A stretch of 63,801 nt of DNA, the filler included, from Reclinomonas americana ATCC 50394 (lineage: Eukaryota), in the NCBI GenBank assembly GCA_048213135.1. It is 7 parts of 5 records of this genome, joined end to end, with 100 filler letters (N's around TTAATTAATTAA, not from the genome) between each part and the next. Parts side by side here need not be neighbours in the genome. Positions count along the whole stretch, not along the records: positions 1 to 24,735 come from PS015456.1; 6 more parts are not named here. The stretch is one strand, 5' to 3'. This document shows, one piece after another, positions 697-55,739 of the stretch; positions within the stretch are counted from its first letter, which is position 1; each line of letters opens with the position of its first letter. The notes under the pieces were generated by a model that was not told the origin of the DNA, made no database searches, and worked only from the letters and a program-made list of their open reading frames with translations. A program made the position numbers and the translations under genes.

Positions 697-3600
697 TTAC
701 TCATCTTCCGGTGGTGGGGGTGGCGGTGGCGGAGGTTGTTGCTCGTCATCTTGGTACGGTGGATCACCGAGCTCGCCGCGATCGAAGCGATCCACCGGCC
801 AGTACGTGGTGATGAGCATGCGACTCATGTATCGACGACCACACAGGTTCGTCTGTGCGCGTTGTGCATCCTGCTCGTTCGCGAACCGAATATACACCTG
901 TGCAGAGGAAGTCAGTCGAGGTAGTCGACAAGTCGCTCTCTTCCATTCCCTCGCCAAACCTTGCCAAGACCGGGAACTTCGGGCTCCGATCGGTAGCCGT
1001 CGCGCATGCGCTTAATCTGCTGCTCTCGCATGCGCTTCTGCTGTCGGATCTGCTCCAGCGCCTGTGCGACAATGGGATTGTCGCGGCGCCCAACAGGCAT
1101 GGGGAAGTCGTCCTCCGGCTCCTCGTCCTCCTGCGGGCGACCACCTCGCATCTCTTCCTCCCGTCGCTTTCGTTCCTCTCTGCGCGTGGCACCAATACAC
1201 ACAGGATGTAAGAGACGAGTGGAGAATCGGTACGCGACAAACGAGAAGGGCGTAACTGTTCCGCGCGGAAACGCTCCACTTCATCGTCGGATGGCGGCTT
1301 CGGCACCACCACATCCAACACTGAGCCAAAACGCGAGGCCTCGTCCCGAATGTCCTCCACCACACTCAGACGGAACTCCTCGTCCTTCAAGTCGGTGACA
1401 TTGACTGCATTCAGCAGCACCAACACTGGAGTCGGCTGCAGTGCATTGGCTGCGGCGGGGAAGGGGAAACTTCATCAATCAACTGCACCTCCACACCACC
1501 ACTGCCAAAACGCGGACACGGTAGCACTCACCAATGTTGCCCGACAGCGACGAAATGACCACCTGCACCGGCTGCTGCATGTTCAAGAAATCTGCACAAG
1601 CCGCGCAAGACGTGTTGTCAGCAGCGTGTCAATCAACAAAATGTCGAGCGTAGCACGACACGCAACGTTCCGCCTTGATATCTTCGGGGTGGCTGCCGAA
1701 AGCACCAGGGGCTCCCACCACAGCACCACCGAGCGGCATCAAGCCAGAGGCGGCGGCATTCTGCGATCACGACGACGGTCAGGCAGGAGGAGAAAGTCAA
1801 GAGAGACTTGACATGGAAAGAGCGTACCCGCAGTCCACTCTGTGCCCGCTGCACCTGGAGCGTCTTGCCACCGAGCTGCACACCATTCAGCTGACTGCAC
1901 ACCACCTCCGTCAACGACTCGTCGACGAACTCGCAGAATGCGTAGCCCTGCACACCGGGTGAGAATGAACAAAGGAAAGAAACAGGGGGGTTGTGGTGCA
2001 CTGCGCACCTTGGAGTTGCCGGTGGCCATATCGCGGCACAGATTGAAACCCTTGAGCGGTCCAAATGTCTGCAGCAATGTCCGCAACTCGTCGTCATTGA
2101 TGCTAGACGCCAGCTGGCCAATAAAGATCTTGTTCGGCGTGTCGGGCACATTGGTGCTGATCACACCGGGGATGTAGGGCACACTCTGCACGTGCCATGA
2201 GAGTTCAATTCTCAGTACATGCGCAGCAACAATGAACACTTGAGAGCATCCGTGACGTACCACACCGCCGCCTTCTGTGATGCCTGGAATCGGCTTGAAA
2301 TTGTTTGGTCGTCGCACCTTCAGCTGCGTGCCCTGCAAGCGCATCAACCCACACATGTCAGCAAAACACACTTCTTCGTCTAGATCAGCAGGCCAACCAC
2401 AGCAGACCTCATAGTGAATGCCGTCCAGAGCCAGCGCCGCAGTGCAATCGTAGGGATCGGCAAACTCCACGAAAGCAAACGACTTGTCGGCCACCACCTG
2501 GGCGGCCACAATCGGCTGGTCGACTCGGCGCGGAACATTCTGGCTCACCATCTGCGCATTGAAAAACAGCACCAGCTCCTCCTACAAATGGTGACACGAT
2601 AACACACTATTAGGCGGCGGCGACGATGTGATGAAGGAGAATGAAAGAGAGATGCCGTGACGCAACTGGTGTAGTGTACGGAGCAATACCGCCAACATAC
2701 AACCGCTTCGCTTGCCTCATCGTGGCCTCGTCGACACCCGGCGGCAGATTCATGGCCGACGCGGCAACTTGGGCGGCCAGCACTGCACAGAACACGAGAA
2801 GTGAACTTCACAGCCACGGCAACGACAGATAAGAGACACGCAACAGTGCGTCTTGTTGAATCCCATGCCCGGCAGCGGTCCGGAGCTGAATCCAGTTGGT
2901 CGGCCAGCACCGAAACCGGCAGACGGCGCTGTGTCCCACAAACTGCGACGATTGGCACTGCAACAAACAAGAGAAAACACACAGTTGTCAGCTTCGAGCT
3001 GGACACCGGAATGGAGACGCGCAGACACACACACACCGCTTGCGCGCAGGAGAGTCGCCACCCGACGGCGATGCACGGCGGCCTGCTCGATCGCGATCTC
3101 TGTTCATCAACGACAGATGAGCGTGACTGCAAAAAAAAACACACGCAACACACTCATGCACGCAACGGCGACGGGCTGCGGTGCCGACGCTCGCGTCCAC
3201 GATCCCGATCACCACGATCTCTGTCGCGGTCGCGGTCACGGTCGCGATCCCTGTCCCTGTAATCGCGATCCCTATCACGGTCGCGGTCCCGGTCGCGGCT
3301 ACTGCCATGGCGATCGCGATCGCGGTCTCGATCACGGTCCCGATCGCGACTGCGATCTCCACCTCTGCTGCTGCTGCCACTGCTGTACCGCGAGTCCTCG
3401 CGATGCCCACCATAGCCATCATCTGCACAGGCGCACAACGGCAGTGAGTGCTGTGCGAAAAAGACAAGGTTCGGGCACATATTGCAATCGCCGACCTCGA
3501 CCCGATCGGTATGATCCACGATCGTCGCCACCCGCACCTCCATGGTAGGCTGGCGGTGGCGGTGCTGGTCCCTCAAACTGTGGTGCACCTCCATCGTACT

Positions 3601-7510: not shown

Positions 7511-10784
<3,274 letters not shown>

Positions 10785-13307: not shown

Positions 13308-13658
13308 NNNNNNNNNNNNNNNNNNNNNNNNNNNNNNNNNNNNNNNNNNNNNNNNNNNNNNNNNNNNNNNNNNNNNNNNNNNNNNNNNNNNNNNNNNNNN
13401 NNNNNNNNNNNNNNNNNNNNNNNNNNNNNNNNNNNNNNNNNNNNNNNNNNNNNNNNNNNNNNNNNNNNNNNNNNNNNNNNNNNNNNNNNNNNNNNNNNNN
13501 NNNNNNNNNNNNNNNNNNNNNNNNNNNNNNNNNNNNNNNNNNNNNNNNNNNNNNNNNNNNNNNNNNNNNNNNNNNNNNNNNNNNNNNNNNNNNNNNNNNN
13601 NNNNNNNNNNNNNNNNNNNNNNNNNNNNNNNNNNNNNNNNNNNCGTGTTTCCTTGCAG

Positions 13659-14010
13659 ATCCACCATGCTTCCAAAGGCCCGCGCGTCGCGCCTGACCTA
13701 CTCGTGGCTCGCCTTCCCTCAGTCAACCGACCAAGGCTACTTCCTCGTCAGCGGCATGTCGTCGCTCTCTGGCGACGGCTGCAACACTCATCCGTTTGGC
13801 CGCGAGTTTACCGGTGTGCCACACGCGGCGGTCTTTGCCCTCGGGTGGCAAGTGGCAACCGGCGACGGCAACAAGGGCCTCGACTACACGCTCTCGATTC
13901 AATCGCAGACAGCAGCAGCCATTGTGTGCGTGCTGACGGCACCAAGCGGCGGCGCCCTGCAGCAGATCGACTACTCGTGGGCGGCCCTCGGCTCCACCAA
14001 GACAGCATAG
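13659..14010 (+). CDS. Terminal exon of the 14325-17594 lectin gene, on a contig that appears inverted
   Basis: TTGCAG| acceptor then STMLPKARASRLTYSWLAFP...CNTHPF...ALGWQV...GLDYTL...QIDYSWAALG* aligns along its length with the last exon of the paralog (NDSRASRLAFSWFAFP...CNTHSF...SLGWQI...GLDFTL...QIDYQWAVFG*). Phase 2 matches the open donor at ~14324. Confidence 0.85.
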
Positions 14011-14148
14011 CCAATCATTCTCTTCTCTCTCTTCTCGTCGTTTTCATTCTTCGCTGTTTATCTTGCGTAACTGTTACGCAGTCCTTCCCCACGGCTGTAC
14101 TCGTGGGTGTATATGGCCTCTTCCTCTTGTTTTACCCTCCTCGTGCAC

Positions 14149-14192
<44 letters not shown>

Positions 14193-14324
14193 GTCTTGGT
14201 TTTTGTTGGCGACTTCCGAGGACATAAGTTTTGATCATTNNNNNNNNNNNNNNNNNNNNGGGCGTGAGGAAAGAGAAGAGTGGAACAGTGGCAGGATATA
14301 TACAGACACAAGAGGCACACGCAC

Positions 14325-17300
14325 CGGAAGAGGAAGCTCTGTGGCTTCACGTCGCTCAGCAGCGAGGTGAACGCGTTGTCACCGTCGCGGAAGAGCCACA
14401 CGTGTCGCAAGGACACAGCCATCACCGGCGAGGTGTGGAATTCTACAGGGAACATCACTTGTTCCTCTTGCTCGCGCACGGCACTGAGGCGGGAGACCAC
14501 CGGTGTCTCCCAGTCGGGGCGTTGACGCGACGAGAACGACATGTTGCCGGCAGCTAGGCGGCCTTCGGTCGACGTCACGCTCGTGGCCAGCACGTGTAGT
14601 CGGAAACTGCGAATCTTGGCATCACTGTCGCCGGGCAGCAATGTCAGCACACTACACGGACTAGTGCGCGCGCGCGTGCGCAGAGACGCAACGAGTAGGT
14701 CACACAGCGGATGCGCAAGTCGTTGACGGAGATGGCGGCCGTCGAGCAGTAAATGCGAGTGTCGGAGTTGGGCGCCACGCTCAGCGCTGAGATGCCGAGC
14801 AACACCTCCGGAACGTGCGCTGGCACAGGGAGATGAGGGCGGTGAGTGTGAATTACTACGATGAGAATGAGGCGAAGTTGCACGTCACTCACCAAACGGC
14901 GGCTCGAACTTGACGAGGTCCTCGTACGTGCGCATGCCGCTGCCGTCGGCGAAACGCGACGGCGCCAGCAGCGTGGGAGTGGCCGTGAAGATGTGCGAGG
15001 CCGCAGCTGTGCGAGCGTCAGCACAACGAGAAGCACAAACTAACAAAAGGGGCGAAGTGAGACACGCACCAGTGCCCACGGCAATCGTGCTGTTCGGCAC
15101 GTTTTCCCACGAGCGGGTGGACTCCTTGTAGACGCACACGTGCAGTGCGGTGCTGCGGGAGGGGTTGAACTTCATGGCAAATCGCTTGCAGTAGCCCTCG
15201 GCGCCACATGCACCAAAGCCGACATCCGGGTCCTTGGCCGAATCGGTCAGCGGCATGGTCACCAGGCCGGCCTCCAGCGGCGACGTCGGTCCGCATGGTC
15301 GGCCCTCGGGAACGAGCGAGAAGCGCGTACATGGCGTGAAATGCGTGCCAATGACGCGCAGCAGGTTGTCCTGTCCAACGTCGGCCGCATTGCGGTTGAC
15401 GCCCGTCGGGATGGCATTGTTCACCTCTGCGCGTGTGCGTGTGTGGCAATCAGCAAATATTCAAAAAAAAAGAAATGGGAGGTGTCGGTGAATCATCAAC
15501 ATACCAGTGATGGCGAATCGCGAGATCTGCACGTACGAGCTGGCGGCGCCGGCCAGTCGCAAGCAGAGACGAGCGTCCGTGGTCGGCTGCGCCACCGCCG
15601 TGCAATCACCGCGCGTGTCGACTTCCTGTATTTGATGAAAGAGAACAATTTAGCAAAAATGCGTGCAAGAAAATGACAAGCGGCTTCCCCACTCAGGGTA
15701 CTCACCAGGGACACCGTGTCGGCCATGAGGCCGGCGGGCTTGACACGGGTATTGGCGACCGGGGTGGGCTTGTTGCAGTCGGTGGACGACAAGATGGCGG
15801 CCTCCGCGTCGTCGACCAAATTCGGCAACAAGCGCGCCATGACCACGACCTTGGCGCTCACCAAACCTCCGGGCACGGCGACCGGACTGACCACCGGGTT
15901 CACTGTGCGTGTGCGGAGACAGGAGAAGGAATCAGCAAAATAAAATAAAAATGAAAGCAGTGCAAACAGAATGACGCAACAAATGTGGAAACGACTGCCC
16001 TTTAGCGGCATGTAGGGACCGCCGACGGCCGGGTCCGGGTGCGTGCACAGGTACAAGTCATATGCCGCATTGCGTCTGCACCATTCCGCGCGTGTTAGAG
16101 AGAGAGAGAGCGGAGTAAAGAAAAATGAGACAATGGGGGACCTACCGAGCAGAAATATCAAACGAGAGGGTCAGCTTGTAGGAGCTGTTGGTGCCCACGT
16201 ACTGCTGCGAGACGACCGTGACGGGAATGTCCTGGTTGGGCAGCACGGTGACGGAGCACGCCGCATCGCGTCGCAGCACGTACGCCACATTGGTGTAGGG
16301 TGCATTGCGGTCGAGGAACTATCCAAAAAGATCAAAAATTAGCAACCAGTCCAAAGGAAAGATTCGTGAACGCAGATACACACGGTACCTGTCCAGTCAG
16401 CGTGAGCACGGTTGGCGTCGGGCTGCTGACCAGAATAACATCACGACTGCGGAACGAGGCAAAAAAATTCAGCCACGGGGTCGGGGGAGCGAGCGGTAAG
16501 AACTATCTGACATGCACGCAACGGCTGGTCCACGCAGAACTCGACAAACGAGATCTTCCAGAAGTGCACCTTTGGCACCACCTTGTTCTGTGCCTCCCGA
16601 TCGGCCACATTCAGCGTCCACCTGCACACCGACACTCTTTGGTTGAGCACACCAATTTATGCGGAAAAAAGTTGCTCACGTGTCATGGACGCAACATTCC
16701 GCCGACCTCCAGCCCGTCGAAAGCCGCAAACGACTCCGCCGGGCGGAAGTCATGCGCCGCATAGATGCGGTCGTCGGCGTTGACGTTCTCGTAGCTGCCC
16801 CACGACACCTCCTGAATGGAGCCCTCGAGACCGTACTCCCAAAACCACACTGAAAACCCACTGCGAGAGCCTCCGGTGCCATTCAACAGCGTCACCGTCT
16901 GCGCACATGTGCACACAAGAAGGAGGTGGCAGATTCAGAAAACATGCGACGCACACACAGAGAGAATGTGCACACCGCACCTTGCCAGATGGATGAACGA
17001 GCTGCGCAACCACATCTCGCGCAAAATGCGCCTCAATGTCTGTGCACGCGCATGAGAACGAGACACGCTACACGCACACACACATTGACACGCGCGCGCA
17101 CACACACCAACGTGCACATAAAAGCCGGCTCGGTCAAACAATTGCCCACTGTGCGTAGTGTCATCATCATCATGGCCATTGTGAGAATCTTGCAATATTT
17201 CCGCAGTGGCTCTCTCTCACACGCACGCACACACACACATTCTCTCTCTGTGAGTGAGACGCAACGGATATGCGGGCTCCAAGAGCAGCGAGTTTGAAGT

Positions 17301-17594
17301 AAAGTGACCGGTCTCCGTAAAAGTGAATGCTCCAGCGGCGCCCGCATCACTCGACGACACAGAGCTGAAACGCGCACATGGTTGTGTGTCCACACTGCCT
17401 AATGACGATGTCTGTTGCTGCTGTTGCTGTTGTTGTTGAGGAGGTAATGAGGAGGCAGGAGCGGGTGCGGGTGTTGATCGAGGAGGTTGTTGCTGTGCGA
17501 GTGTGAGCACTGCTGCTGCAGTGATGGCGATAATGACTGCCACGAGCACGAGGACGAGCAGTGGTAGTGGTCGTCGTCGACGCGTGACGATCAT
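14325..17594 (-). CDS. Secreted multidomain protein, paralog 1: signal peptide, P-domain-like, Cys-containing beta-sandwich modules, H-type lectin-like domains
   Basis: Signal peptide (LPLLVLVLVAVIIAITAAAVLTLA). P-domain-like TVTLLNGTGG...DFRPAESFAAFDGLEVGGMWTLNVAD...FWKISF. H-lectin-like VKFEPPFAHVPEVLLGISALSV...TRIYCSTAAIS and VMFPVEFHTSPVMAVSLRHVW. Confidence 0.75.
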
Positions 17595-18449
17595 CGCGTG
17601 TGATGTCAGAGTGAAGGGTGCAATGGATTTTTCACTGGGGGCGCTTCAATTTGAGAGTTACCCCCCTTTTGTCGTGCGGTGTGGTGACTCTGCGTGTGTG
17701 TGTGTGTGTGTATGGTGTGCTCTTCGTGTGTCTCCGAGTTTCTCCGTGATTATGTGTGCATTCGTCACGTTGGTTCACTCATCGCCATGCCACTGTATTA
17801 GTGTCCGGTTGGCGAAGCAACCGCTTTAGGCATGTGGGATTCAACGCGGCGCGGGCCCTCGCAGTCTCTCGGCGACTCAAATTTGCAATGCTGGCATTCG
17901 CCTATCCGCGAGTCTGTATGCCAGAGCCGCAAGTTCATCATCGCGATTGTTTTGCAAGCACCTGCGTCGGCTTTTTTTTTGTCGCTCTTGGCGTTCCTCT
18001 TATCAGAGCAGTGATGCTGGCTGTATGCCCCTGTAGCATGGATGCCCAAGAGAATGCCGTCGCTCAAGCTGTGTGACACAAAGTTACCGTGGTAGTATTC
18101 GACCAATACGCAGTTTTCCTGGAAGACAGAAAATCGCAGACGCCGACCATATACGCGTTCCATATCGCACCCTGCTGGGGTACCGTGTGTTTTCATTGGC
18201 CAACAACATCTACTCTGAATTTTCGAGTGAAGGAGAGAGAGAGAGGGAAAACACGATGCGAAGAAAACGCAGAGGCACACACAACCACCACCAGCACCAC
18301 TACCACCGCCGACCCACCTATGGGAAACTTTTTGCCGCAACACAAGTTGACATGATGATACGAATACAAAACAAGACAAGAGAGACAGGGGAAAGAAAAC
18401 ACACACAAAAAGACTTGGCTCGACGCAGTCTGTTCTTGCCGGCGCTGGC

Positions 18450-21400
18450 TCAAGCAAGAATGCCAAACACGGCCCACTGGTAGTCAATCTGTGTAATGGC
18501 GGCGACCGAGTTCGAGGCCAAGCAGATATCCATGGATGTGGCAGCGGTGTTGTCGACAGTCAGAGTGAAGTCGAGGCCACTGTTGTTGGCCGAGTTGATC
18601 TGCCAGCCCAGCGAGAACACCACGTACTGCGGTGCCGGCGTGGTCAACACATCCTGGAACGAGTGCGTGTTGCAGGAAACCGAGCTGATCGAAGATTGGC
18701 CACCCTGCAGCGCGTACTGGCCGCTGGTGGTGGTCGACGGGAATGCGAACCACGAGAACGCGAGGCGCGAAGCGCGAGAGTCGTTCAACAGGGCAGCACT
18801 GCGCGAGCGAGCGTGTCAGAAACAACGAAAGATATTACTGTAATAAATCCCCACATTACAACGCACCGGAAGTTGAAGTTGCGCGGCGAGGCGGTGGTAA
18901 CCTTGCTTGAGAAAGCGTTGGCCGTTTCCGAGAAAATCCACAAGTGGCGCAGGCCGACAATGATCGACGGCGTGGCGGAGTAGTCCACCGGGAAGCCAAT
19001 CGAGTCGTCTTGCTCACGAGAGGCCGGCACCGAGGCAGGCAGGCGCTCCCAATCGGCGCGACCGCGCGAGCCAAAGGTGATGTTGCCGGTCGACGACACA
19101 CGGCCCAGAGAGGCCGGTGAGTAGTGCGCCAGCACGTACACGCGGAAGCGGTTGATCTTGGTGGTTCTGCGGGAGGAGAATATGAGACCAAATACGCTCA
19201 TCTTTCTTTCAAGGGAGGGAAACTCCCCACTCACCCGTACGTGACGCAGCGGCAGCGCATGTCAATGGTGGTGATCGACACGGCCGAGCAGTACAGACGA
19301 GTGTCAGACGGGGCGACCACACCAAGAGCCGACAGACCGACAATAACGTCGGGGACGCGCGCAAACGGCGTGGAGAACGTCACCGTCTCCTCGTACGTGC
19401 GCACACCAGTGCCAGAGGCGAACTGCGACTCCGTGAACGCATCGTCCGCCGGGGTGAGCTCGGCCGCCACGGCAGCTGCACACGCAAACGCATACGGCAT
19501 AAACATCACCCTCCTTTTGCGTGCACACTCTCGAAAAATAGACGCAACTGCTGCCGGCGGTGACGATGCCGTTGGGGACCTCGGCCCAGGTGGCCTGGTC
19601 GTTGAGGAGGTAGCACACCTGCAATGACTTGCCTTGCGTGACAGTCATCTTGAAGGAGAAGCGGCGGCAGTAGTTCTGGTCGCTGCACGACGACAGGCCC
19701 ACAGTCGAGTCGACGGTGGAGTCGACGGTCAGGGCGCCAGTGAGAGCCGAGGCGATCACATTGGTCGGGGCGCAGGTGCTGCCGAGCGGCACCACCGAGT
19801 ACGAGGTGATTTCGGTGAAGAACTGGCCAAACACGTGCACCAGCGACTCCACATTGATCGGGATGGCATTCGGCGTCACGCCAGTCGGGGCCGGTTGGTT
19901 CGGGTCTGTGCTCACACAAACGACCACCAATGAGCGGGAGGGAGACCATGCACACAACAGTAGACACGGCAAACGCACCGCCAATCGACATGGTGGCAAT
20001 GTTCACGTACTCGGCAGTGGAGGTGAAGCGAGCGCACAGCGGAATGTTCACTTGCGGGCTGGCAAAGGTGACGACGCCGCTGACAAGCGCGCGAGTGGCA
20101 AAGTACTACAACATCACCCCCGCGACGTCAGCTCACCGACACGAATCTCTTTGGCGACAGCCTCTGCTATGCTGCTACTCACCAGCGCAATGTAGTTCGA
20201 GTCGAACGAGGCAAACGTGATCGACGTGTTGCTGACGGCAGTCGGCGCCGTGCATCCGTTGGACGACAGAATGAGAGCATCGGCGTCACCAGAGATGTTG
20301 GGCAAGTTGGCGGCGCGGATCACCACCTTGGACTTGATCAGACCCGAGGGCACCGAGAGCGGCGACACGGTCGGGGCCACTAAAGCGGAGATACATGTGA
20401 GTATGTGAAATCGTCCCTTTTTCCCTTCTGTGCCCACAAGGTGACGCAACAAATGTTGATCGGAGAACCGCTGAGCGGCATCCAGTAGCCGCCACTGTTC
20501 ACACCCGGGTTGGTGCAGAGGTTCAGCTGCACGGCAGCCGAGGTACGAGCCAGCGTGTTGAACGTCAGGGTGAACTGGAACAGCTGGGTGTTCGAGTTCA
20601 GCAGCGGGTTGCCAGCAGTGTAGCCGACCGGAATGGCGGCCTCGCCAGACAGCGGAGTCTTGCAGGAGGTGTCGGTGAAGAACTGCAGGGCCACCTGCGG
20701 GTAGGTCGGGCTCGGGGGAATCTACCACAGAGGAACACAACAGTGAGGAACCGAGCTGCGGCGACAGTGGAAAAGGGGGTGGAGCGACGAAACAATGCCC
20801 TCCATGCCAATGGCCAGCGACGCGTCACCAACGACCAGCGACACTTGCGCTCTGCATTATTGATACGAGTGAGCGACATGCAATGACAGAGCGGGCGCTT
20901 GCAGGCGGGCGACGCAACGGTGAAAAGATGCACCAGTCCTGGTACTGAATGACCCACTGGCGAAGGCTGGAGGTGAGCGCAGCATTGTTGCTGCCGTTGC
21001 CGTCGGTGGCAGTGACAGTCCAGCTGAAGCGCGGAGAGAGAAAGAACGAATGAGTGAGATGGTGGAGACAGTTAAAAAAGAAGAGCCAACATGAGACAAC
21101 GAAACTCTCCCGCGAGGGCAGTGTTGACAAATGTCGACAGCGACTGCGCCGGCTTGAAATCAAACTGGGTGGAGCCAACGCCAATGACATTGCTGTCACC
21201 ATCGCGAGCGGCCCAGGTGTTGTCGACGCTCTGAATGTTGCCCGACATGCCATTGTTCCAGAACCACGCCTTGATGCCCGTCAGCGACGCGCCACCAATG
21301 TGCTCGAACAGCGTAACCGTCTGTGCACAGTGCATAAGCACACAAGGAGAGACAGAGAGGAAGATATGCACATGTAGCAGGTCCGTACCCGTCCCGAGTG

Positions 21401-22188: not shown

Positions 22189-22582
22189 ATGCGGAGCCTG
22201 GCACTGGTTGCGCTCTCGCTGGTGCTGCTGCTCTGCGCGGCAAGCACCTGCTCAGCGTACTATACGTTGCGTCACCACAAATAGACGGTGGGCGCGGAGA
22301 GGACAATTTCCGACGCACTCACACGCCCACTCTCCGCTCTTCTCAGTGAGGAGTTCCACACTGCGGAGGACACAGAGTCGCTTCTGCAGCGCGTGTTTGG
22401 CGCCACGCCGCAGTCACCGGCGCAGAATCCGATGGACTGGTTCACTGAGCGTGTTCGTGAATGGGTGGCGTGGGCGCGCGGCTACCGCGCGGCCACTGCG
22501 GCCATGAGCACGCCCACTGATGCAGCGTATGACCCGCGTCGTGCATCAGTGCTGCTGAACGAGGACGAGATGAATGATGAAG
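22189..22582 (+). CDS. Secreted protein of unknown function, 3' part lost in gap
   Basis: MRSLALVALSLVLLLCAASTCSAYY signal peptide. Phase-2 intron 22266-22346 (C|GTTGCG...TTCTCAG) joins in frame to EEFHTAEDTESLLQRVFG...; next donor G|GTAATG. Confidence 0.6.
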
Positions 22583-22685: not shown

Positions 22686-22734
<49 letters not shown>

Positions 22735-24609: not shown

Positions 24610-24636
24610 CTCTCTCTTTCTCTCTTTCTCTCTTCT

Positions 24637-24727
<91 letters not shown>

Positions 24728-24842
24728 GTCGTCGTNNNNNNNNNNNNNNNNNNNNNNNNNNNNNNNNNNNNNNNNNNNNTTAATTAATTAANNNNNNNNN
24801 NNNNNNNNNNNNNNNNNNNNNNNNNNNNNNNNNNNTCGTCTC

Positions 24843-24937
<95 letters not shown>

Positions 24938-41000: not shown

Positions 41001-44000
41001 ACGGATCGCCGGCCAGTGCGTCGAAACACATCACATACCGGCCGGCGTCGATGGATCGGCTGGCTCGGATAAACAGCTGAGATCCATCGGCTGAGACCTG
41101 CACCAAGCCAGCGAGGTCGCCATCTTGCCACACCGCTGAGCCACTGTCCACCGCAGATGACGTGGCCGAGGCAGTGCACGACAGAGCCTCCCGCTGCAGA
41201 CGAATGCGTCGCAGCAGAGGTCCTGGCGCGAGATTGGCACCAACGACAGTCACGGTGGGAGGCGGAGCGTAGAGAGCAATTGCTTGAGGTTCCAGTCGCG
41301 TGGTCGAGGCTGCAATGGAAAACGCAAAGGCGACGGACACAACCATGAGAACCGACAGCGGCTTGCAAACACAGCAATGATACCTGACAAACCAACAGAG
41401 ATTGTGGCAAACGATGCATAGGAGATCATGACGTTGGCAGTCACGTCGACACACACCGTGTACGTGTCGCGCCGCAAGGAGCCTACGAATGCCACAATCC
41501 GACTGGCATCATCCACAGCACCGACAGCACGAGGCGCCAAGGTGGCCTCCACAGTGTCAGCCGTGAATGGCGAGCACAGCATGCCAGGCACCAGACGAAC
41601 ACTGCGCACACTGACAGCGGCGCGCAGTCCGGCACCTATCACTATCACTCGCGATGTGGTGTCCTGGCGCAGTACGGCAGTCGGCGTCACAGACACTGTC
41701 TGCGCCACGAGGACTTCGTTCCCGTCGTCGGCCACTGGCCACTTGATGAGCGGTGACCCAGCAGCAACAGGTCTGCCTCGCAGGTTGACACAAATAACCC
41801 ACTGGCCCGGCGGCAATCCGTTGGCCAACAACATCCGCAGTTGCGTCTTGTCGATTGTCGTCGTCACCGACGTCGGTTGCACAATCACACCGGTCCCTGC
41901 CGGCCGACAGGCGTAGGCGAGTTGCAACTCCACCGACAACACACTCAACGCCATGTCCAGCGCCACGCCGAAAAGCGTCAGTGTGGACTGCGGAGTGTTC
42001 GGGAGTAGGGTGAGCGGCTGCATGGTGGTCGCAATGGCTGTGAAAGGCAGACGTGCGCGTCAGTGGAATGCAATGGCACCATCTGCGGCAAGAGGACTCG
42101 TCGTCTCGCACAACTCACCCGTGTGAACCGACTGAGTGCCGTCGCCAGGACCCACGCGGACGAGCCGACCAATGGGTGCCGCCGTCCACTCCACGCACAC
42201 GGCATACACACCTGGCGCAAGCCCGCGGTTGCCATCAGAACCGAGCGGCACCTTGATTGCACTGCCGTCAATGACGGAGGGATCGGGCACGATCAACGAG
42301 GAACCGGGAACGACAACAAATGTGCTTGCAGTTGTGTCGCAGGCACCGGTGGGATCGAATACCACACGCCGGATGGACAGCGGCGACAGGCCGATTCCTT
42401 ATCGCAGAGACACGGTGAGAAGATCACCTTATCAAACAGCGTGTCCATCACATACACACACATACACAAACCGTGCAGCTCCGCAGCCGCTGTCGCATCC
42501 AATGCCGCGACAGCCGTGGTGATCAGAGTGTCGACGCGACCGGCATACAGCAGTGGTGTGCCGACAATGGGAATCAGTGTTCCAGGCGGATTGAGTGTGT
42601 AGTCCACACAAATCTGCGAGTCATTGATGAGGCCAGGTTACGTGTGCACAATCACCAACAATCATGTTCACACCTGATACACAGTTGCTGGCAAACCACC
42701 GGAAGGAACGACGATTACCAGTTGCGTATCGGCGGTAGAGGCACTCGCAGACAGTGAGCATGGCAGCCGACTGGCAACTGGCGATGCCGAACAGGCTCCA
42801 ACGGCGGTGGATGACTGCACGGGAACCAGGAACACAGAGCGCACATTTGCGCCAGGTTGAAGACTGTATCCGCTCAGAATCAGGGCGGCAGAAGAGTCGG
42901 CGGCCAACAGAGTCCGTGGTGAGAAGGAGTCAACACCAACTGATGGAACATCGAAAACGAATCAATCACCACTCATGAACATACACGCACACAGTACCGA
43001 CAACCCCCCACACACACCGACGACAAGCTCCGTGGTCCCGAGTTTCGAGTACGATCCAGCAGCAACACGGGTGCTACTAACATCGACACACACGCTCCAT
43101 CTCCCCGACGGTGTCAACGGCGCTCCGCCAATGGCCACCTGCAGATCTGAGGGAGTATTTGCCACAAAGTCCGCCAGCGCAAAGCTGCGCACAATGGCCG
43201 ACGCGGGAGGTGCCACTCCAAGTGAGCATGCGCTCGTGCTGAATTCAAGGCGCGCGCCACGCAGCAATGCAAGCGTGAGATTCGCACCCTGCAGCGTCAA
43301 CGATGCATTGCCTCCCGCAGTGGCTACCGCGGATGGTGCAAATGATTGGAACCCTGCAGCGATGCACGAGAGAGAGATATGAGCGGGCAAGGAAAGCGAA
43401 ATCGCTGTTGCATCTCCATCATTCTCACCTCCTCCACACACAGCATCCGTGTCGAACAGCGGAGGACACGAGCATGATCCGTTGCCCGTCACGCCGTCAG
43501 AGCACGCGCCTCCGTTCTGACACTGACACGCAGTGGTGCACCGATTGTCATACCAACCGCGCTCGCAGTTGCTGCACCCCGTGGACGCCGACACGTGCGG
43601 AAGGCATGTCCCGCAATTTCCTGACGGATCGCGCAGCGCCGTGCATCGACAAAGACCACTGCCTTGCACGCCGTCATCACACGTGCCACCGTTGCTGCAC
43701 GACGGGCAAATGCCAGCACAGCGTCGACCATATCGACCCGCCGGGCACTGGCAGGTGAGGCCGCCGCCACTCGAAACACATCTGCGTGTCGAGAAGGGAA
43801 CGGCAACTTGTGAGCAAAGATAGAATGGGAGAAAAGGCGAATCCAAGTACGAAACGAAGAGTTTCCTTGGCAGTTGCATCGCGCTACAGATTCACGCATG
43901 CGATAAGTAACCAGCAAGCAGATTGTGGTGTGCGGTCATGAACTCACAAGAGCACACAGGTCCAGTGAGGCCGCCAGTACAAGCAATCGTCGTGAACGAC

Positions 44001-47000
44001 AGCACCACACCGCGCAACGGCGACGACAAGTCGATGACACGATAAAAGTACGTGGTGGAGGGGAGCAGTGGCGACGCTGTGAGTGACATGGGGTTGTTCC
44101 CGGCAGGAATCGTGGGTATGATCGAGTCGGCGAGTTTGATACGCCGCACGACATTGTTCCCCGTATCTACCACACATGCAGAACGATAAGCAACAAGGGG
44201 ACAGCCAAGATAAGTATGCGAATGGTGAGCGGAAGCGACACGAACCGGCTACGAACAGAGCTCCCGATTTGATGGAATCAAGAACGAGAGCGCCCTGGTG
44301 TCAGCAGCAGCAGAAAGCATCAGTGAAGCTCACTCAAAGACAAGATCCCTCGACAGCAATCTCACGAAACTGGACTGCGGAAGCTGGCACTCGTCGCTGG
44401 ACCATCAGCAGCACCCGCCAACGATAGCGCACTCGACAATGACGTCGTCACTTGTCCAGTGGCAGCATCCACTTGCCGAATCGCATGATTGGCAGTCTGC
44501 AGAAAGGAATATGAGACGCTACTTGCACTCTACAATGCAACTCAATAAACGCAACATCCGCCACATAGAGAAGACCACCGAGGACGTCCAAAGCCACATC
44601 AGATGGGCTGCTGAATCGTGCATTGGTGCCGATGCCGTCGGCGAGCGCAGGAGCGGCCGACATGTTACCAGCCACCGTGGTCATGATTCCCGACTGCAGA
44701 TTGAAGCGACGAATGGCATTGTTCCCGGTGTCAGCCACATACAATGCACGTGCCACCGGATCGAGGGCCAGTCCAGATGGGTGATTGAGCAAGGTGGCGG
44801 ATGAGCCAACAGTGCCCGCTTGACCAACGAGGGTGGTCGTCACACCGACAATGGACACGCGCCTGCAGCAATGATTGAGGGAGACGACAAAGAGAGGCAC
44901 GATTAGCAATAGTGCGAACCGCACAACATGGTTGCCCCAGTCAGCCACATAGATGCATTCTTGGGCGTCAACGTAGTCCATGGCCAGACCACGTGGACTC
45001 GACAGCTGCGCGGCGGCGCCAATGCCATCCGTGAAGGCTGGTCGACCGCTTCCAACCACAGCGTACACAGTGCCGGCGGCCAGTCGACGCAATGCGTGAT
45101 TGTTGCTCTGATTCACACACACAAGAAAAAACAATGAGTGAGATAAGCAAAGCATGCCGCCTACACATCAGCGTACGCACATCCGAAATGTAGACTTGCG
45201 CCGAATACGCGTCGACAATGACATACGATGGGCTGCAAAACAGACAAACAGTGAGTAAATGGCGAAGCGCTCGAAAATGAGCACATGCAGGCAGACCTGG
45301 AAAGCCTGGCTGTAGTCAGCGCTGCACCGTTGATGAAGCCGCTGACCATGGGCTGTCCGGCCAGTCGAACAACGGCACCAGTTGTCGAGTCAATGGAGCT
45401 CACAGTGTGTTGGCTGATACAAATGTCGTACGATGAGTGGAGCTCATTAACAAATATGGGATGGTCAAACACCCACCTCGCATCGACGACAACCAAGTTC
45501 CCCACACTGTCCACCGCAACGCTCTGTTCCACAACAGCAGTAGTGAGCGAGCAAACAATGCAAGTCAGCGGGTACGAGCGATGTGCACTTGCAAGCTGCT
45601 GACGCCAGCGGCAGGTACGGTAGACACTTGCGGTGATGAGCCGAACGCATCCGACGTGAGCGCAATGGAGAATCGCGGATTGGCTGACGGTGCGCCGTTG
45701 AGGACCAGCGACGCTTGCAAGATAGCAGACATAGCGGCAACATTGGTCGCCGCCACAGTCGACAGCAGCGGAACTGCAAACGCGCGATCGCGAGTGAGCA
45801 ACATCATGCAACATGCGTCACAGAGAAAGAATGCCCAAAAAACTACGTACGTGTGGTGGTGCTTGTGCGTGAGATCGTTCCACGTTGTGTCGATGTTGTG
45901 TCTGTCAATCGGTACAGGTACGTGGAGTTTGGCAGCAACCCGGTAGCAATGGCGCTGAATTGGTTGGCGGTAGACGTCGCCGAGCCGCCGAGACGCCACG
46001 AGGGGAGCGAGATCCGTCGAATTGCATTCGAGGCTGCCAACAAAATGTCAGTGAATGTCGAACGGTGAGGCAACAAGTCTCACAGTACGCACTGACGACG
46101 GCCAGAGAACCCTGTTTTTGATTGACGCACAGTCCGCGCTGCATGGGAGACGATAGACGCAACATGAGAAGCTCACTGACACTCCACCGCAAGAGTGCCC
46201 ACATACCAAATCGCTGAATTGCGCCGTGGCGGCAGCGCCGTTTGCATATCCTGCTTGGCCAGCCACGCCAGCCACCGTGGTGACGGTTCCGTCGCTGGTC
46301 GATACCAAACGGATTATCTTGTTGCCAACCTGCAACAAGAGAGAGAAAAGGGAAGTGAGCGCTTGAAAAGCAACAGGACGAGCGAATCAGACAACGAAAC
46401 GTCGGCCACATAGAGGACATTTGCCAGCGGGTCCAGATCCATCGTTTCAGGCTGGTTGAAGCGCGCAGCCGACGCAACGCCATCCGCCGTGCCGGTGGAA
46501 GACATCATACCCGCCAGTGTGGACACGGTTCCAGTGGCCAGCTCGATTGCACGAATGACAGAGTTGTTGCGATCGGCCACAAACACGAGTTGACGGGAGA
46601 CATCCACGGCCACGGCCATGGGCCCGTTGAAGCGTGCAGTCAGTGCGGTGCCATTTGAAGTGCCGCTAACGCCAGCTTGGCCCGCCACGGTGGTGGTGAC
46701 TCCCGAGAAAGACACACGACGGATAAGATGATTGCCAAAGTCGGCCACATACACGCACTCACGACCGGTGCTGTTGTCGATGGCGATGCCGCGCGGCTGC
46801 GTAAATGATGCAGCAGTGCCGGTGCCGTCCGCGGCCCCACCGCTACCAGTGCCGGTCAGTGTCGACATGGAGCCACCAGTCACACGCCGTACCGCATGAT
46901 TGCCGTACTACAATGACAATCATATGAGATTGTCGCGAAGGAGAGATGAACCAAAAAAATGCGCCACCCAACGCAACATCGGCAACGTAAGCGTCACCCG

Positions 47001-50000
47001 TGGCCACATCGACTCTGACATGCATCGGACTGCAACGCATCTCTGTCAGCATAAAAAACAACCACGTAAGAGCGCATCAAAAGAAAAAATGCACGAAACG
47101 ATCGCAGGGTGGCCGTGGCAAGTGCACCGTTGGTGAATCTGGAGATGCACATGTTGGTTCTCTCGTTAGTAATGGAAACATTACAAGTAATCATCACAGT
47201 AATCAGCGTACTGACCCTTCCATTCCCAGCAATCCAGCAAAGGTGGACACGGCGCCCGACGCGGACACGAGTCGAATAGCGTGATTGCTGCGCAGAATTC
47301 CGACATGAGGTACAATTGTTGTCATTTCCAAATCAGCAAAGCAAACGCACCCAGCGTCAGCCACATACACATTCCCGCTCCCATCAGAAGCCGCACCCTG
47401 TGTGCGTCACACACAGAGAAGGGAGGTCAGTGACATCGTCCAATGATGGAAAACAATGCGTGCAGGCGACGTACAGCAGGCTGGTTGAAACGCGCCGAGG
47501 CACCAATAGCCGAGTCGGTAGATCCAGTGCTGGCTGGATCGCCTGCCAACGAAGTCACCGACATAGAGGACAGGAATTGCGTCTGTTGCGTTGCCAGCTC
47601 AAACACAGGTTGAGCAGCGACACTCGCAACCACGGTTCCCACAAGTGTCATTGCATTGTGCGACACCGCGGTGGCTTGCCCAGTGGTCACCGTGGGCGCT
47701 TCGCAGAATCGAAATGCGTGTCAACCTCAAACGTTCTGAGAGCAGGAATCGCGACAATATGAAACTCACCCGACAGCGTGGTGAAATTAAGCACCGAGCC
47801 GTGTGTGCCATTGTCGAGACCAACACGGAAAACATATGCGGCCTGTGGACTGAGTTGACCGATTGATAAACTCACAGCGGCGCTGCTGGAACCAGTGACC
47901 GAGGGTGGGGAGCCAGCAATATCCGGTGCCGGAATGGTCACTCGCCGCACAGTGTTCGTCCCATCTGTGAATGCGGAGGTGAGTGAGGTGGGAGAGGGGA
48001 GAGGGAGGGAGCAAAAGAAGTGACACTGCACCTGAAACTAAGAGAGCCATGTTCGTGACATCAAATGCAACACCGATCTGTCACCTCACGATGAGCAATG
48101 ACGTCAAGCTGACCCACGACACGAGACACAAACCGGCGACGTGAAACGAGTCGCAGATGCATCTCCAGATGAGGATCCGGACGTTCCTGCCAAGCCCAGC
48201 AAGGTGCGCACAGTGCCGTTGGGTGAAACCTGACGAATAATGTGACTGTCCGTCTGTGAAAAAAACGAGAGAATGGAAAACACCATGAGCAGCCAGAACC
48301 CATCACTTGAGAAAACACAGTGATTCGCAACATCGGCGACAAACAGCGTGCCGCTCACAGGATCCAATGCGAGTCCGTTGGCAGCACTGAACTGTGCCAC
48401 CGACGGCGGCCCATCCACGGCACCCGCCAAGCCACTCCGTCCAGTCACCGTCGATACAATCAAAGTGGCGAGGTCCATGCGCCGAACCGAAAACGAACCC
48501 GAATCCAACACAAAGAGCACACTGCGCGCAGCATCCACCACCACGGCGGTGGGGGCGATAAGCCTCGCATCGATTCCGACACCGTCAGTGGATCCAGCTG
48601 CGGCTGCACTGCCGGCGACAGTCGTCACGCTGCCAAACACCGTAACCATTCTACATGTATTGAAACATAAGTGCAAGAGAAGCGAGCAATCACCGTCATC
48701 GCCACAGGCGCTCACCGAATCGCGTGATTGTCCTTGTCGGCAACGTATATCAACTGCGTGCGAGGATCCACAGCCACACCGGTGGGGTGATTGAGTTGCG
48801 CCGCAGAAGCCACACCATCGCTGCTGCCGACGGATCCATTGCCACACACGGTGGAAACCGAGCCACCAGATACAAGTCGCAATGCATTGTTGCCAGACTG
48901 TGATAAACAACAACATGAGCAACAATAGGGACAAGGTCCGCACTGCCAGACTCTTGCTCACCTCGACAATGTACAAATCACCAGAAGTGTTATCAACAGC
49001 CACACCATACGGACTACACAAGCAGCAAATTAGGGAGAGGCCAGAAAACCGGCAAGAAAGGATGAATAACAAACAGACCCATTCAGCGTTGCCGTTGCAA
49101 CGGGACCGTCCACCATGCCGCTAGAGCCTCGCACACCAGCGGCGGTGGTGACATTGCCAGCGGTGTCCATTTTGCGAACCAATGAATTACTGCATGGTGC
49201 AAGTCAGATGACAAGTGGTTGACGACAAACGACGATCGCAGAGCAACACAACTCATATTCCGCAATGTAGACGTTGCCGCTGATGTCCAAGCACACGTGC
49301 TGGTGGAGAAAAAATATTGTTGGTGAAGATTGCACACACAACATCTCCGCGTGATGAGCACATACCCGCATGCCGTGGAAGGTGGCCACGTTTCCTGCAC
49401 CATCTGCGCTGCCAGTCATGCCAACCGATCCGGCAACCAACGACGATGTCACGCTGGCGGTCAATGCAGAAACTTGGCGAGCAACATTGAAGGCCGTCGC
49501 TACGGGCTGACTGCCACCAGCGTTTACGGTGCCATTAAGGACGGCCGTTGTAGATGCCACACTTGTCGCCGCAGCAGTCGCGACAGTGGCACCTACGTGG
49601 CGCAATAAGCGGTTCTCATCGGGCACGCGCAAGAAGAAAGCAAACATGCATTCGATGCAAACCTGGCGTGGTAAACGGCACAGAGGAGCTACGGTAGGTG
49701 CCAGCCGCCACTCGCACGTTGTATGTTACCGCTGGTTGCAGTCGCTGCACCGCTGCCGACACTGCGACATCAGTGCTGCCGGAGGCAACAGACGACGGCG
49801 TGCCGGGAATAGAGGAGGCAGGTAGTTGTACTTGTCGGATCACGTGACCTGCTGCGTCTGCGGAGGTAGTGAGAAACACAAGTACAGCTGCGGAAACAAT
49901 CATGCACGGGCATCTGATCTTCACCTGCAACAATCAAGCTCTGGGTGGCCGCCGAGAACTCCACACCCCGCTGTGAACAGCTGGTAAGTATCGCGGCACT

Positions 50001-52019
50001 CAATTGCATGCGAGAGAGAGTGAAAACACCAACCAGCTGCTGGAATCTGCTGCTCGAACCATCGCCAACTGCCGATCCACTGACTCCGTACGCTCCAGCC
50101 AGTGTGCTCACCATGCACGACGGAGAGATCACACGCACCACATTACTCTGATACTGCAACACAGAAGGGGGGAGAAAGTCAGGCACGAACTCGCTTTGTA
50201 ACAGCTGAACTGCGATAACGCAACGTCGGTTGCGTAGATATTTCCCGAGTACGGATCAAATGCGAGTCCTCGAGGAGAATCAAACACAACAGCCGTGCAT
50301 GGGCCGGCCACAGTATTCACAGCACTGGCGCCTCCGGCAAATGTCACGACCTCCATCGTTAGCAGATTCAGCCGCCGTATCGCATGGTTGCCAACATCGC
50401 CAATGTATAGCATCGAGTTCTGGACGTCAAGCGCCAACGCGCTGGGTGCGCTGAAGCGAGCAGCACTGCCGGTGCCATCTGCACTCCCTGACACAGTTGC
50501 AGTCCCGGCAATGGTCGTCACCGTGCCATCGAAGGTCACTTGCCTGCGAGCGAGAAACGGGAGAGGGAGTGAATGAGTACAAGGCTGAAATCGGGAAGCA
50601 CGAAGTGTGTGATAAAATGGAGGGGGAAAAAAGGGAGTGCACAAATGCCAGGTATCGTTCACAGGACAACACACACACGAATAAGATAAAGCCACCGTGG
50701 CACGTACCGAATAGTGTGAGATGCCGTGTCGGCAACGTAAAGGACTCGAGCGAGGCAACTGGCGGCCACCGCACTCGGTGAATTGAACTGAGCAGATGGC
50801 GAATCGCTGCCGCCTGCCCCCAGTCCAGCAAGAGTTGACACGTAGCCAGATGCCCATCGTCGAATCTTGTTGTTGCCGTTCTGCGATGACACCAACAAAG
50901 TCGATAAGCACGCACAGGTCTTGCTCCATAACCCCCACCGCCCACGCACATCGACGATAAAGAACTCCGCCGAGGCATCACACAGATCAATGTCGATAGG
51001 ACTGCAAAACGAGAAGCAAATCATTAAGGAGTAGAAAGACATTGAGGGACAAGCACGAATCGCAACCAACGCAACGTATTCAGCGTGGCCACAGAAACGA
51101 GACCGTCAACACTGCCAGCGGTGTATGGCTTTCCGACCACGGTCGTCGTGTCACCGGCGGTGGAGATCTTGCGCACGGTATGCGTGCTACACATATGCAC
51201 CGGGACGTGAGTAGCGCGCAATATCATGAAACACGGCAAGGAAACGAAGCGCAACGTGGAGTCCCCAACGTAAGCGTTGCCCAGAAAGTCAACTGTAACA
51301 CCCTGCACAATCCCATCGTCGCAGGAAAACACAATCGTAATCAGCAAGAAAAGTGGAATCCCGCACTAACGCACCGTAAGAACAACTGCGACACACCGTC
51401 GGTGACTCAAACTGCGCAGCAGCACCAGAGCCATCGACATTGCCGCCCAATGAACCCGCCAGCGGTGCAACAGTCGCAGGTCGGTCGAATGCGCCGGTAA
51501 CTTGCGCCAACTCGAAGGCCACTGCCAGAGGACCACCTTCGTGAACATTCACCAAGCCGTTCAAGGTGGCCGATGTGGACGACAAATTGGTGGCTGCTTG
51601 TGCAGCTGTCGAGGGCGCTGTATCGACGAAATGTAGAGTGAGTTCAAGCAAGGCACGCAATCACACTGAAGACTAGCAGAGTCCAACAAACGTACCGAGC
51701 GTCGTGAATGATAAAAGGTTTCCACGTCCAGACGAGATTGTGTCTATCAAGCGGAAAAAGTATGACGACTGGGGCAGCAGTGCTGCGAGGGAGAGAGACA
51801 CTGCAGTGCTCGTCGTTCCTGTGACCGAACTCGGGGACGCCACAAGCGTACTTGGCGGCAATGAGATACGTCGCACAGTTTCGCCTTGTGGCCCTGCCGA
51901 CACGAATGTCATTGGTTCGAGTAAATGAACATACAACGCAGTGAACGCAAGTACACACCGGCGACAAGCAGACTCCAGCTCGTGGTGTCAAAGGCCACAC
52001 AAGCCTGTTGACGCGCAAT
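38083..52019 (-). CDS. Ectodomain of the giant receptor: FN3-like/NHL-propeller units, EGF repeats, ~7 IPT/TIG-like Cys modules, FN3-like and REJ-like domains
   Basis: NHL repeats (ARFNGPMAVAVD...VFVADRNNSVIR) at 44150-51950. EGF cluster CQCPAGRYGRRC...CSNGGTCDDGVQGSGLCRC...CQNGGACSDGVTGNGSCSC at 43440-43790. ~110-aa modules ending Y.VCVD...+.VG at 40500-43360. FN3-like TGLLPNTNYTFSV. REJ-like VDPD...VFNWGCTVDGVDC. Confidence 0.8.
39075..39375. repeat. (CACT)n tetranucleotide microsatellite in an intron
   Basis: Long CACT/CTCA run. Confidence 0.95.
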
Positions 52020-52119
52020 NNNNNNNNNNNNNNNNNNNNNNNNNNNNNNNNNNNNNNNNNNNNTTAATTAATTAANNNNNNNNNNNNNNNNNNNNNNNNN
52101 NNNNNNNNNNNNNNNNNNN

Positions 52120-52292
52120 GGGGGGAAGCGACAGGAAGGAAGCGACAGGGGGGGAAGGGACAGGGGGGAAGGGACAAGGGGGAAGCGACAAGGGGGAAGC
52201 GACAAGGGGGAAGCGACAGGGGGGAAGCGACAGGGGGGAAGCGACAGGGGGGAAGCGACAGGGGGAAGCGACAGGGGGGAAGCGACAGGGAA
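52120..52292. repeat. Minisatellite, ~13-14-nt unit G(5-6)AAGCGACA
   Basis: About 12 tandem copies of GGGGGAAGCGACA and variants. Confidence 0.9.
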
Positions 52293-52436
52293 GTAGAGAA
52301 GGAGCAGCACGATGAACGGCGGGGTGGGACGAGGCGAGAAATAACCCTCGCACTGGACAGCGCAATGAGTAGCAATGCTTCCTCTCTATGGCTCTCTCTC
52401 TCTCTCTCACACACACACTCTCCCTTCACCCTTCCG

Positions 52437-55345: not shown

Positions 55346-55739
55346 TGCGTGTAGAGAGCAAAAAAAGCGGTGGAGGAAGGGGAGGAGGGGGGGAGGAGAG
55401 GGGGAGGAGAGGGGGAGGAGAGGGGGAGGAGAGGGGAGGAGAGGGGGGAAGGTGAAGGGGAAGGAAAAGGGGAAGGAAAGGGGAAGGAAAGGGGAAGGAA
55501 AGAGGGAAGGAAGGGGAAGAGCAAGGGGAAGGAAAAGGGGGAAGGAAAAGGGGGAAGAGGGAGGGGGAAGGTGAAGGGGGAAGAGAACGGGAAGAGCAAG
55601 GGGAAGACCGAAGGAGGAAAACCGAAGGGGGNNNNNNNNNNNNNNNNNNNNNNNNNNNNNNNNNNNNNNNNNNNNTTAATTAATTAANNNNNNNNNNNNN
55701 NNNNNNNNNNNNNNNNNNNNNNNNNNNNNNNTGTGCCGT

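Follow-up and report, generated by a model that had tools for sequence, protein, structure and literature searches.

Donor sites of two nearly exclusive forms that follow the last exon base in a 64-kb window of Reclinomonas americana DNA

In a stretch of DNA from the eukaryote Reclinomonas americana ATCC 50394 (GenBank assembly GCA_048213135.1; 63,801 nucleotides (nt), filler included, hereafter the window), the donor sites of predicted introns appear to exist in two nearly exclusive states that are set by the last base of the upstream exon (position −1). In state 1, this base would be G and the intron would begin with a degenerate sequence, GT[A/G/C]N(G)(T), represented by GTGAGT, GTGCGT, GTACGT, GTATGT and others (‘ordinary’ donors). 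In state 2, the exon would end in A, C or T and the intron would begin with the near-invariant sequence GTT[G/T]CG[T] (‘GTT-type’ donors), for which GTTGCGT is by far the commonest form, followed by GTTTCGT. This second type makes up about 4 in 10 of the window's introns. Among 39 curated donors from two paralogous genes, a U2AF65-like gene and an NHL-repeat region, 20 are ordinary after G, 18 are GTT-type after another base, one is ordinary after a base other than G, and none is GTT-type after G (p=3e-10). We assign a probability of roughly 60% to the reading that the −1 base sets which of the two states is used and that the sites are probably read by a modified or second U1 small nuclear RNA (snRNA).

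The proposed scheme places the exon in control. The encoded amino acid would set the −1 base, and the intron side would follow. The two states would interconvert at a fixed intron position with the exon boundary unmoved, and the most economical route for such a change would be a substitution at −1 combined with the gain or loss of a single T after GT.

Donor classes in two H-type-lectin paralogs

Two tandem genes on the minus strand, paralog 1 (P1) and paralog 2 (P2), provide the most direct comparison of the two donor states, and the models for both translate without stops. P1 (14325..17594, minus strand) comprises 14 exons up to a gap of N nucleotides and has an open frame in a hand-built model aligned to P2. 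P2 (18453..21841, minus strand) comprises 13 exons that form a complete open reading frame (ORF) from ATG to stop. These exon models were built by hand, guided by three-frame ORF segments, by exon-level similarity between P1 and P2, and by a small dynamic-programming gene finder. Of 816 aligned residues, the encoded proteins share 306 (37.5% identity). The predicted product of P1 is a secreted or membrane protein that contains H-type-lectin-like repeats, and the P2 exon at 19237-19473 matches the H_lectin family (PF09458, E value 8.6e-8) in Pfam searches, which were given single exons rather than spliced proteins.

All 26 donors in these two genes fit the rule, with 15 carrying G at −1 followed by GT[A/G] and 11 carrying A, C or T followed by GTT (Fisher p=1.3e-7). 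The latter group is made up of eight GTTGCGT, two GTTTCGT and one GTTGAGT. All 26 introns have GT at the start and AG at the end, and the reading frame is kept when they are removed.

Twelve intron positions are common to P1 and P2. Ten of these occupy the same alignment column in the same phase, one is a single column off owing to a gap (the upstream exons are 58 nt in both genes), and the first is displaced by N-terminal alignment gaps. When sorted by class, five positions have ordinary donors in both copies, four have GTT-type donors in both copies, and three have switched. An earlier note on this DNA had proposed such switching between the paralogs from two pairs of sites. Both pairs are real, and the note had missed a third.

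In the first switched pair, which lies in phase 2 after the residues CVTY, the P1 donor is TC|GTTGCGT (14686..14692, minus strand; the bar marks the exon end) within a split Ser codon, TC|T, and the P2 donor is GG|GTGAGT (19229..19234, minus strand) within a split Gly codon, GG|A. The upstream exon sequence measures 114 plus 127 nt in P1, which equals the 241 nt of P2. The second pair lies in phase 1 and joins an ordinary P1 donor, TG|GTGCGT (15064..15069, minus strand), which follows AVGT and splits an Ala codon (G|CT), to a GTT-type P2 donor, CA|GTTGCGT (19542..19548, minus strand), which follows TAGS and splits a Thr codon (A|CT); the upstream exon is 357 nt in both genes. The third pair is in phase 0, with AG|GTACCG after the Gln codon CAG in P1 (16383..16388, minus strand) and TT|GTTTCGT after the Ile codon ATT in P2 (20787..20793, minus strand), and each upstream exon is 58 nt. 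Because exon lengths are equal in both copies, the exon boundary has not moved at any of the three switches. The −1 base at each of these sites follows from the amino acid encoded there.

At other shared positions both copies are GTT-type. The P1 donors TT|GTTGCGT (15974..15980, minus strand, phase 1) and CC|GTTGCGT (16516..16522, minus strand, phase 2, in a conserved Pro codon) have identical partners in P2 at 20450 and 20918, respectively. A third P1 donor, AT|GTTGCGT (16689..16695, minus strand, phase 2), is matched in P2 by GA|GTTTCGT at 21105. The earlier note had listed these three pairs as retaining the unusual donor in both copies, which is correct for the class as a whole, with the qualification that the site at 21105 carries the variant GTTTCGT rather than GTTGCGT. 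All seven coordinates given in that note are correct on the minus strand. The first donor of P1, CC|GTTGCGT (17259..17265, minus strand, phase 2), probably has its partner in the P2 donor AA|GTTGAGT at 21629.

Two introns on the minus strand are present only in P1, at 16145 (CG|GTAGGT) and 14892 (TG|GTGAGT), and the coding sequence of P2 is continuous at both places. These are cases of intron gain or loss between the paralogs, and both have ordinary donors after G. The end of the P1 gene has a different peculiarity. An apparent last exon, with which the reading frame of P1 is complete, lies on the plus strand between two N gaps (13659..14010). It shares 44% identity with the final P2 exon and has a weak H_lectin match (E value 0.0011). 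This exon sits, with its own acceptor before it, in a plus-strand piece at 13644-14239 that is bounded by N gaps at 13308-13643 and 14240-14259, and this contig piece looks inverted in the scaffold.

The same association outside the paralogs

A U2AF65-like gene located at approximately 770-3500 on the minus strand provides a site at which the junction is set by comparison with other organisms. Its donor CCA|GTTGCGT (2660..2666, minus strand) falls between the start of RRM1 and the main RRM1 exon, where it is placed by homolog spacing. When the donor at 2666 is joined to the acceptor that precedes 2581, the residue spacing agrees exactly with that of six of the six homologs that match both sides in tblastn searches (seven homologs were used, and P0003 gave no upstream match). 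Other donors of this gene that are backed by homolog alignments are G|GTCTGC (2407, which begins an in-frame intron of 75 nt), G|GTACGT (2260) and G|GTGCGC (2008).

Repeated protein units offer another means of fixing junctions. An NHL-repeat coding region occupies 44000..55400 on the minus strand (Pfam NHL, PF01436, E value 1.7e-9), and an intron recurs there directly after the Asp or Glu codon of a YVAD motif. Nine junctions were validated by requiring the motif of the downstream unit; two sites that failed this filter, at 54162 and 50224, were left out of the count. At all nine the unit spacing is restored; like the U2AF65-like intron at 2666, these introns start with GT, end with AG and leave the reading frame intact when removed. 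Six have GTT-type donors after T, C or A, all on the minus strand: GAT|GTTGCGC at 55106, GAT|GTTGCGA at 48331, GAT|GTTGCGT at 46971..46977 and again at 44555, GAC|GTTTCGT at 46400, and A|GTTGTGT at 49252. Two have ordinary donors after G, namely GAG|GTGAGC at 48956..48961, where a Glu codon supplies the G, and G|GTGCGT at 47350 (both minus strand). The ninth, GAT|GTGCGT at 50944..50949 (minus strand), is an ordinary donor after T and an exception to the rule, with the junction fixed by the unit spacing D|NGNNKIRRW. Asp codons never end in G, and GTT donors are found in Asp units; the sole Glu unit (GAG) has an ordinary donor. For the curated donors outside the paralogs, the counts of G versus other bases at −1 are 5 and 1 for ordinary donors and 0 and 7 for GTT-type donors (p=0.005).

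A window-wide comparison was made with introns called by a home-made gene finder that is blind to the exon side of the donor. Early passes of this program, which used either G+C content at third codon positions only or a codon table without a signal model, fused genes and ran through in-frame introns, and these were replaced by scoring of the intron side of the donor. In the final pass, the donor score derives from intron positions +3 to +8 only, through a two-component matrix, and exon bases are never scored. This pass called 88 introns and recovered 21 of the 26 curated paralog donors, missing 5; it also reads through some in-frame introns, such as those at 2407, 48331 and 50949. A filter requiring scores of at least 3 for both flanking exons, an intron length of 55-135 and a YAG acceptor left 68 introns, of which those without T at +3 have G at −1 in 34 cases and another base in 7, and those with T at +3 have G in 1 case and another base in 26 (Fisher p=2.6e-11). 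When a donor score of at least 1.5 was also demanded (high-confidence set, n=51), the corresponding counts were 23 and 4 versus 0 and 24 (p=1.3e-10), and the pattern was no different in a previous pass that scored donors more crudely. The earlier note had claimed that donor class covaries with the −1 base. This covariation holds for 26 of 26 paralog donors, is seen again in the U2AF65-like gene, the NHL units and the exon-blind calls, and persists in the larger sample when the paralogs are removed from the high-confidence set (n=34; 15 and 4 versus 0 and 15, p=2.2e-6).

The composition of the high-confidence donors further distinguishes the two classes. GTT-type donors have C at +5 in 22 of 24 and G at +6 in 24 of 24, although the motif-score filter inflates this purity. 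Among ordinary donors, GTGAGT and GTGCGT occur 8 times each. The usual exon-side consensus MAG|GT is absent here, as evident by the near lack of A at −2 in ordinary donors (A in 2 of 27, with T in 11, C in 8 and G in 6). A few donors on the minus strand have C at +3 after G, specifically G|GTCTGC at 2407, G|GTCTGT at 49078 and G|GTCGGT at 55218.

GTTGCGT occurs 44 times in the window versus 13.1 +/- 3.9 times in 100 dinucleotide-preserving shuffles, none of which reaches 44, and its one-letter neighbours have 4 to 27 copies each. GTTGAGT, by the same unfiltered count, has 5 copies. On genic DNA (~39.7 kb), GTTGCGT is found 29 times in the sense direction and 5 times antisense, which makes it the second most sense-biased heptamer beginning with GT; only a GT microsatellite ranks above it. 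The genic parts of the window are about 58% G+C, and N gaps are numerous. The base before the 44 copies is C in 18, T in 15, A in 8 and G in 3, compared with a G frequency of 22% before any GT (binomial p=0.016). G|GTTGCGT is essentially absent, with 0 occurrences among the curated and the high-confidence donors; of the three G-preceded copies in the window, at least one is antisense to a gene. The signal for GTTTCGT is weaker, with 15 copies versus 8.1 expected, 7 of them sense versus 2 antisense.

Such data bear on the concern that the pattern is an artefact of the gene models, with the true donors elsewhere or the genes being pseudogenes. The junctions are indeed predicted from sequence, and the gene finder is home-made. 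However, both paralogs have full-length open frames with identical exon lengths despite the divergence of their proteins, the spacing to homologs is exact across a junction in the gene for an essential splicing factor, the NHL unit spacing is restored, and the motif is strand-specific to the extent noted above. We therefore regard an artefact as very improbable.

GTT-type introns might also constitute a separate class, derived either from introner elements or from introns of the minor (U12-type) spliceosome. Introns of U12 type carry a rigid extended 5′ motif with no preference for G at −1, and some introner families likewise have a near-invariant 5′ motif, so the GTT-type donors resemble both in their near-invariant motif, and the U12 type also in the extent of that motif and in doing without the −1 G. 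The U12 motif RTATCC(TT) is present at the start of 0 of 24 GTT-type introns, a U12-like branch motif (CCTTRAY/TCCTTRAY) lies near the 3′ end of only 1 of 24, and GTT-type introns are far too frequent and interchange with ordinary donors at the same positions in both the paralogs and the NHL units. The two classes are also alike in length, acceptor and spread of phases in the high-confidence set. Median lengths are 72.5 nt for GTT-type and 73 nt for other introns, with equal interquartile ranges; all introns of both classes end in YAG, and phases 0, 1 and 2 are all represented. Of the 24 GTT-type introns, 9 have a YTRAY motif, mostly CTGAC or CTGAT, at a distance of 8-45 nt from the 3′ end, compared with 12 of the 27 others, by a strict pattern that leaves many branch sites unassigned in both classes. 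An all-against-all blastn-short comparison of the 51 introns revealed no intron sequence family, yielding only 12 hits of 12-16 nt that are driven by GT repeats. On these comparisons, the GTT-type class belongs neither to the U12 type nor to a family of repeated insertions. The separate-class explanation is largely refuted and retains a very small probability.

The alternative is that GTT-type introns are ordinary short U2-type GT-AG introns in an alternative donor state, which these comparisons of predicted introns support. The earlier note had drawn the same conclusion, and it is sustained by the shared positions and phases, the equal exon lengths and the lack of shared intron sequence. A placement of the cut one base later (HG|TT.., where H is A, C or T) was considered and rejected; such introns would start with TT and end with AG plus a variable base, as the first base of the following exon is T in 8, A in 7, C in 6 and G in 3.

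Recognition of the two donor states

When aligned at the right, GTTGCGT (+1 to +7) matches GGTGCGT (−1 to +6) at 6 of 7 positions, GTTGCGT being a G joined to the block TTGCGT displaced by one base. Both forms would then constitute a single heptamer, G-[G/U]-U-G-C-G-U, and an snRNA that reads 5′ splice sites would bind both in one register. In state 2 the intronic G at +1 would stand where state 1 has the exonic G at −1, with cleavage remaining at the only GU. State 2 demands ..GCGU, not ..GAGU, which makes the textbook U1 5′ end an improbable pairing partner; a U1 modified in this lineage, or else a second variant of U1, is the more likely one. One specific form of this idea, less likely than not, is a U1 5′ end complementary to GUUGCGU, belonging either to a second variant that differs opposite +2 or to one remodelled U1, such that two dialects would be spoken within one major spliceosome, the residue encoded where the exon ends dictating which one an intron uses. 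If this were true, a dimorphic system of U1 and 5′ splice sites would have been caught in coexistence, unlike the completed takeover in Entamoeba. The rare ordinary donors after A, C or T with the form H|GTRCGT are plausible intermediates between the states. No gene for U1 or another snRNA was found within the window by Rfam searches at gathering thresholds, and at E values up to 1 the only match was a weak one to IRES_Bip that is attributable to chance.

Several observations weigh against the view that the −1 base sets two states read by a changed or additional U1. Duplex energies were predicted with ViennaRNA on the textbook U1 end and on invented ones, the latter being consistency checks rather than evidence. 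The values do not favour a simple shifted register. Textbook U1 pairs worse with C|GUUGCGU (+0.5 kcal/mol) than with C|GUGCGU (−1.4), a hypothetical ACGCACC end gives the same ordering (−6.2 versus −9.3), and this ordering holds whenever the U1 end has C opposite +1/+2; the GTT form is favoured by a hypothetical ACGCAAC partner alone (−10.5 versus −6.3). The upstream exon bases show no extension of a shifted helix, since the −1 base of state 2 is C in 10, T in 8 and A in 6. The rule is also not absolute, given that unit spacing supports exceptions at 50949 (T|GTGCGT) and 47474 (T|GTACGT). The gene finder gives four further ordinary donors after bases other than G, although three of these lie in GT repeats, where donor placement may be off by two bases. 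Finally, the sample is a single 64-kb window, and the NHL units, like the two paralogs, are related to each other by descent and are not independent.

The main competitor to a changed or additional U1 is that one standard U1, with C8 and C9, reads GTT donors in a register shifted by +1, wherein G+1 pairs with C9, U+2 is mismatched with C8, and the U6 and U5 snRNAs fix cleavage at GU. This would explain why the right-aligned heptamer G[G/U]UGCGU is common to both classes, and also why it is the mismatch-bearing state that hardly varies, since all its other bases would have to pair. Shifted registers are moreover known in humans (PMC4856993). On the other hand, with any U1 end that has C at position 8, the predicted duplexes are weaker than if the extra U were removed from the site, and textbook U1 should prefer GUUGAGU or GUUAAGU, yet the ratio of GTTGCGT to GTTGAGT is 44:5. 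In humans, all validated noncanonical registers combined account for 1.5% of sites, versus ~40% GTT donors here. We consider a shifted register with standard U1 rather unlikely. The earlier note had called these donors ‘shifted’; its covariation and its assignment to the same introns hold, but that term describes only a hypothesis.

A second possibility retains the canonical register and bulges U+3 (or U+2) out of the helix, first in the pairing with U1 and subsequently in that with U6. Removal of one U from GTTGCGT, GTTTCGT or GTTGAGT yields GTGCGT, GTTCGT or GTGAGT, two of which are the commonest ordinary donors, and a bulge register of this kind (+2/+3) is documented in humans at 54 to 68 predicted sites (PMC4856993). 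However, a bulge leaves the restriction to bases other than G at −1 unexplained, as a bulge combined with a lost −1 pair is the weakest combination, and ViennaRNA never picked a bulged structure for the oligonucleotides tested. This explanation is accordingly improbable.

The idea that a changed or additional U1 reads both states can be compared with known dependencies at donor sites. Compensation between the exon −1 G and the intron side of the donor is textbook knowledge. Dependencies between the −1 G and intronic donor positions are said to be captured by the maximal dependence decomposition (MDD) model of Burge and Karlin, and were reportedly described again by Carmel et al. in 2004. The pattern in R. 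americana is similar in that a stronger intron side compensates where the −1 G has been lost. It is different in that the known dependencies involve improved matching at +3 to +6 with the register unchanged, whereas here there is an extra nucleotide and a distinct fixed heptamer.

Shifted and bulged registers of base pairing between 5′ splice sites and U1 were reportedly described in humans by Roca and Krainer in 2009. By analogy, donors of the two systems would have in common GU-AG introns that start with GUU, cleavage at GU while the helix is offset or bulged, and a strong remainder of the motif. The differences are that such donors begin ~40% of introns here, that the motif is of the GCGU type rather than the AAGU type, and that it is nearly exclusive with G at −1. 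In humans, shifted and bulged registers are proven but rare, with validated noncanonical registers at 1.5% of sites and +2/+3 bulges at 54-68 sites (Tan et al., 2016, PMC4856993).

Precedent for a U1 5′ end that changes to match the donor is offered by Entamoeba, with GUUUGU(U) donors and a co-evolved U1 5′-AACAAAC-3′, and by Mastigamoeba, with a U1 variant ACGUAC (Roy and Bowser, 2022, 10.1101/2022.06.08.495308). In Archamoebae, donors transformed together with a co-evolving U1 are thus known in the form of a uniform motif. The Entamoeba donors are like those of R. americana in being lineage-specific, with U at +3 and high information to +7. They differ in that a single motif accounts for 88 to 90% of the few introns of Entamoeba, whereas two motifs coexist here in an intron-rich genome and the last exon base chooses between them. 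Among the literature matches listed, no description of a GTTGCGT/GUUGCGU donor motif was found. What is different in this organism, on the basis of the predicted junctions, is the combination of two nearly exclusive donor forms at ~6:4, a choice made by the last exon base, and swaps at fixed positions.

If the two-state arrangement is general, it carries practical and evolutionary consequences. Gene annotation with single-matrix donor models would miss or misplace about 4 in 10 introns of this organism, and a two-state donor model would be needed. Co-evolution of splicing signals and snRNAs is usually visible only as a finished genome-wide replacement, but here both states would coexist and swap under the control of one measurable variable. 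Protein evolution would lead intron sequence, such that one donor type is forced wherever Asp is encoded and the other becomes permissible with Glu.

Other features of the window

A short ORF on the plus strand at 22190-22272 starts with a signal-peptide-like exon and ends with TAC TAT AC|GTTGCGT, after which the gene runs into an N gap; the end of this ORF is probably another GTT-type donor. A long tract of low complexity, rich in pyrimidines on the plus strand, extends from ~22700 to 40000 with a GC skew of mostly about −0.2 to −0.5, a G+C content of 33-54% and many N gaps. No gene model was found in this interval (22700-40000), where stop-free frames give only strings rich in S, L, P and F. 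At 24736-24835, 37983-38082, 52020-52119, 55632-55731, 59792-59891 and 61891-61990, six places in all, there are in each case two blocks of 44 N separated by exactly 12 bases, a regular pattern of masking or gaps unlike other runs of N. A very large gene, or several genes, extends over 40095-55400 on the minus strand and includes NHL repeats, a Cys-rich EGF-like region (recognized by eye in the translated sequence) and further exons that belong to no clear family. The best protein matches to the U2AF65-like gene and to a TMEM260-like exon reach at most 39% identity, and no close relative is among them. The gene for this TMEM260-like O-mannosyltransferase is located at 7850-10772 on the plus strand.

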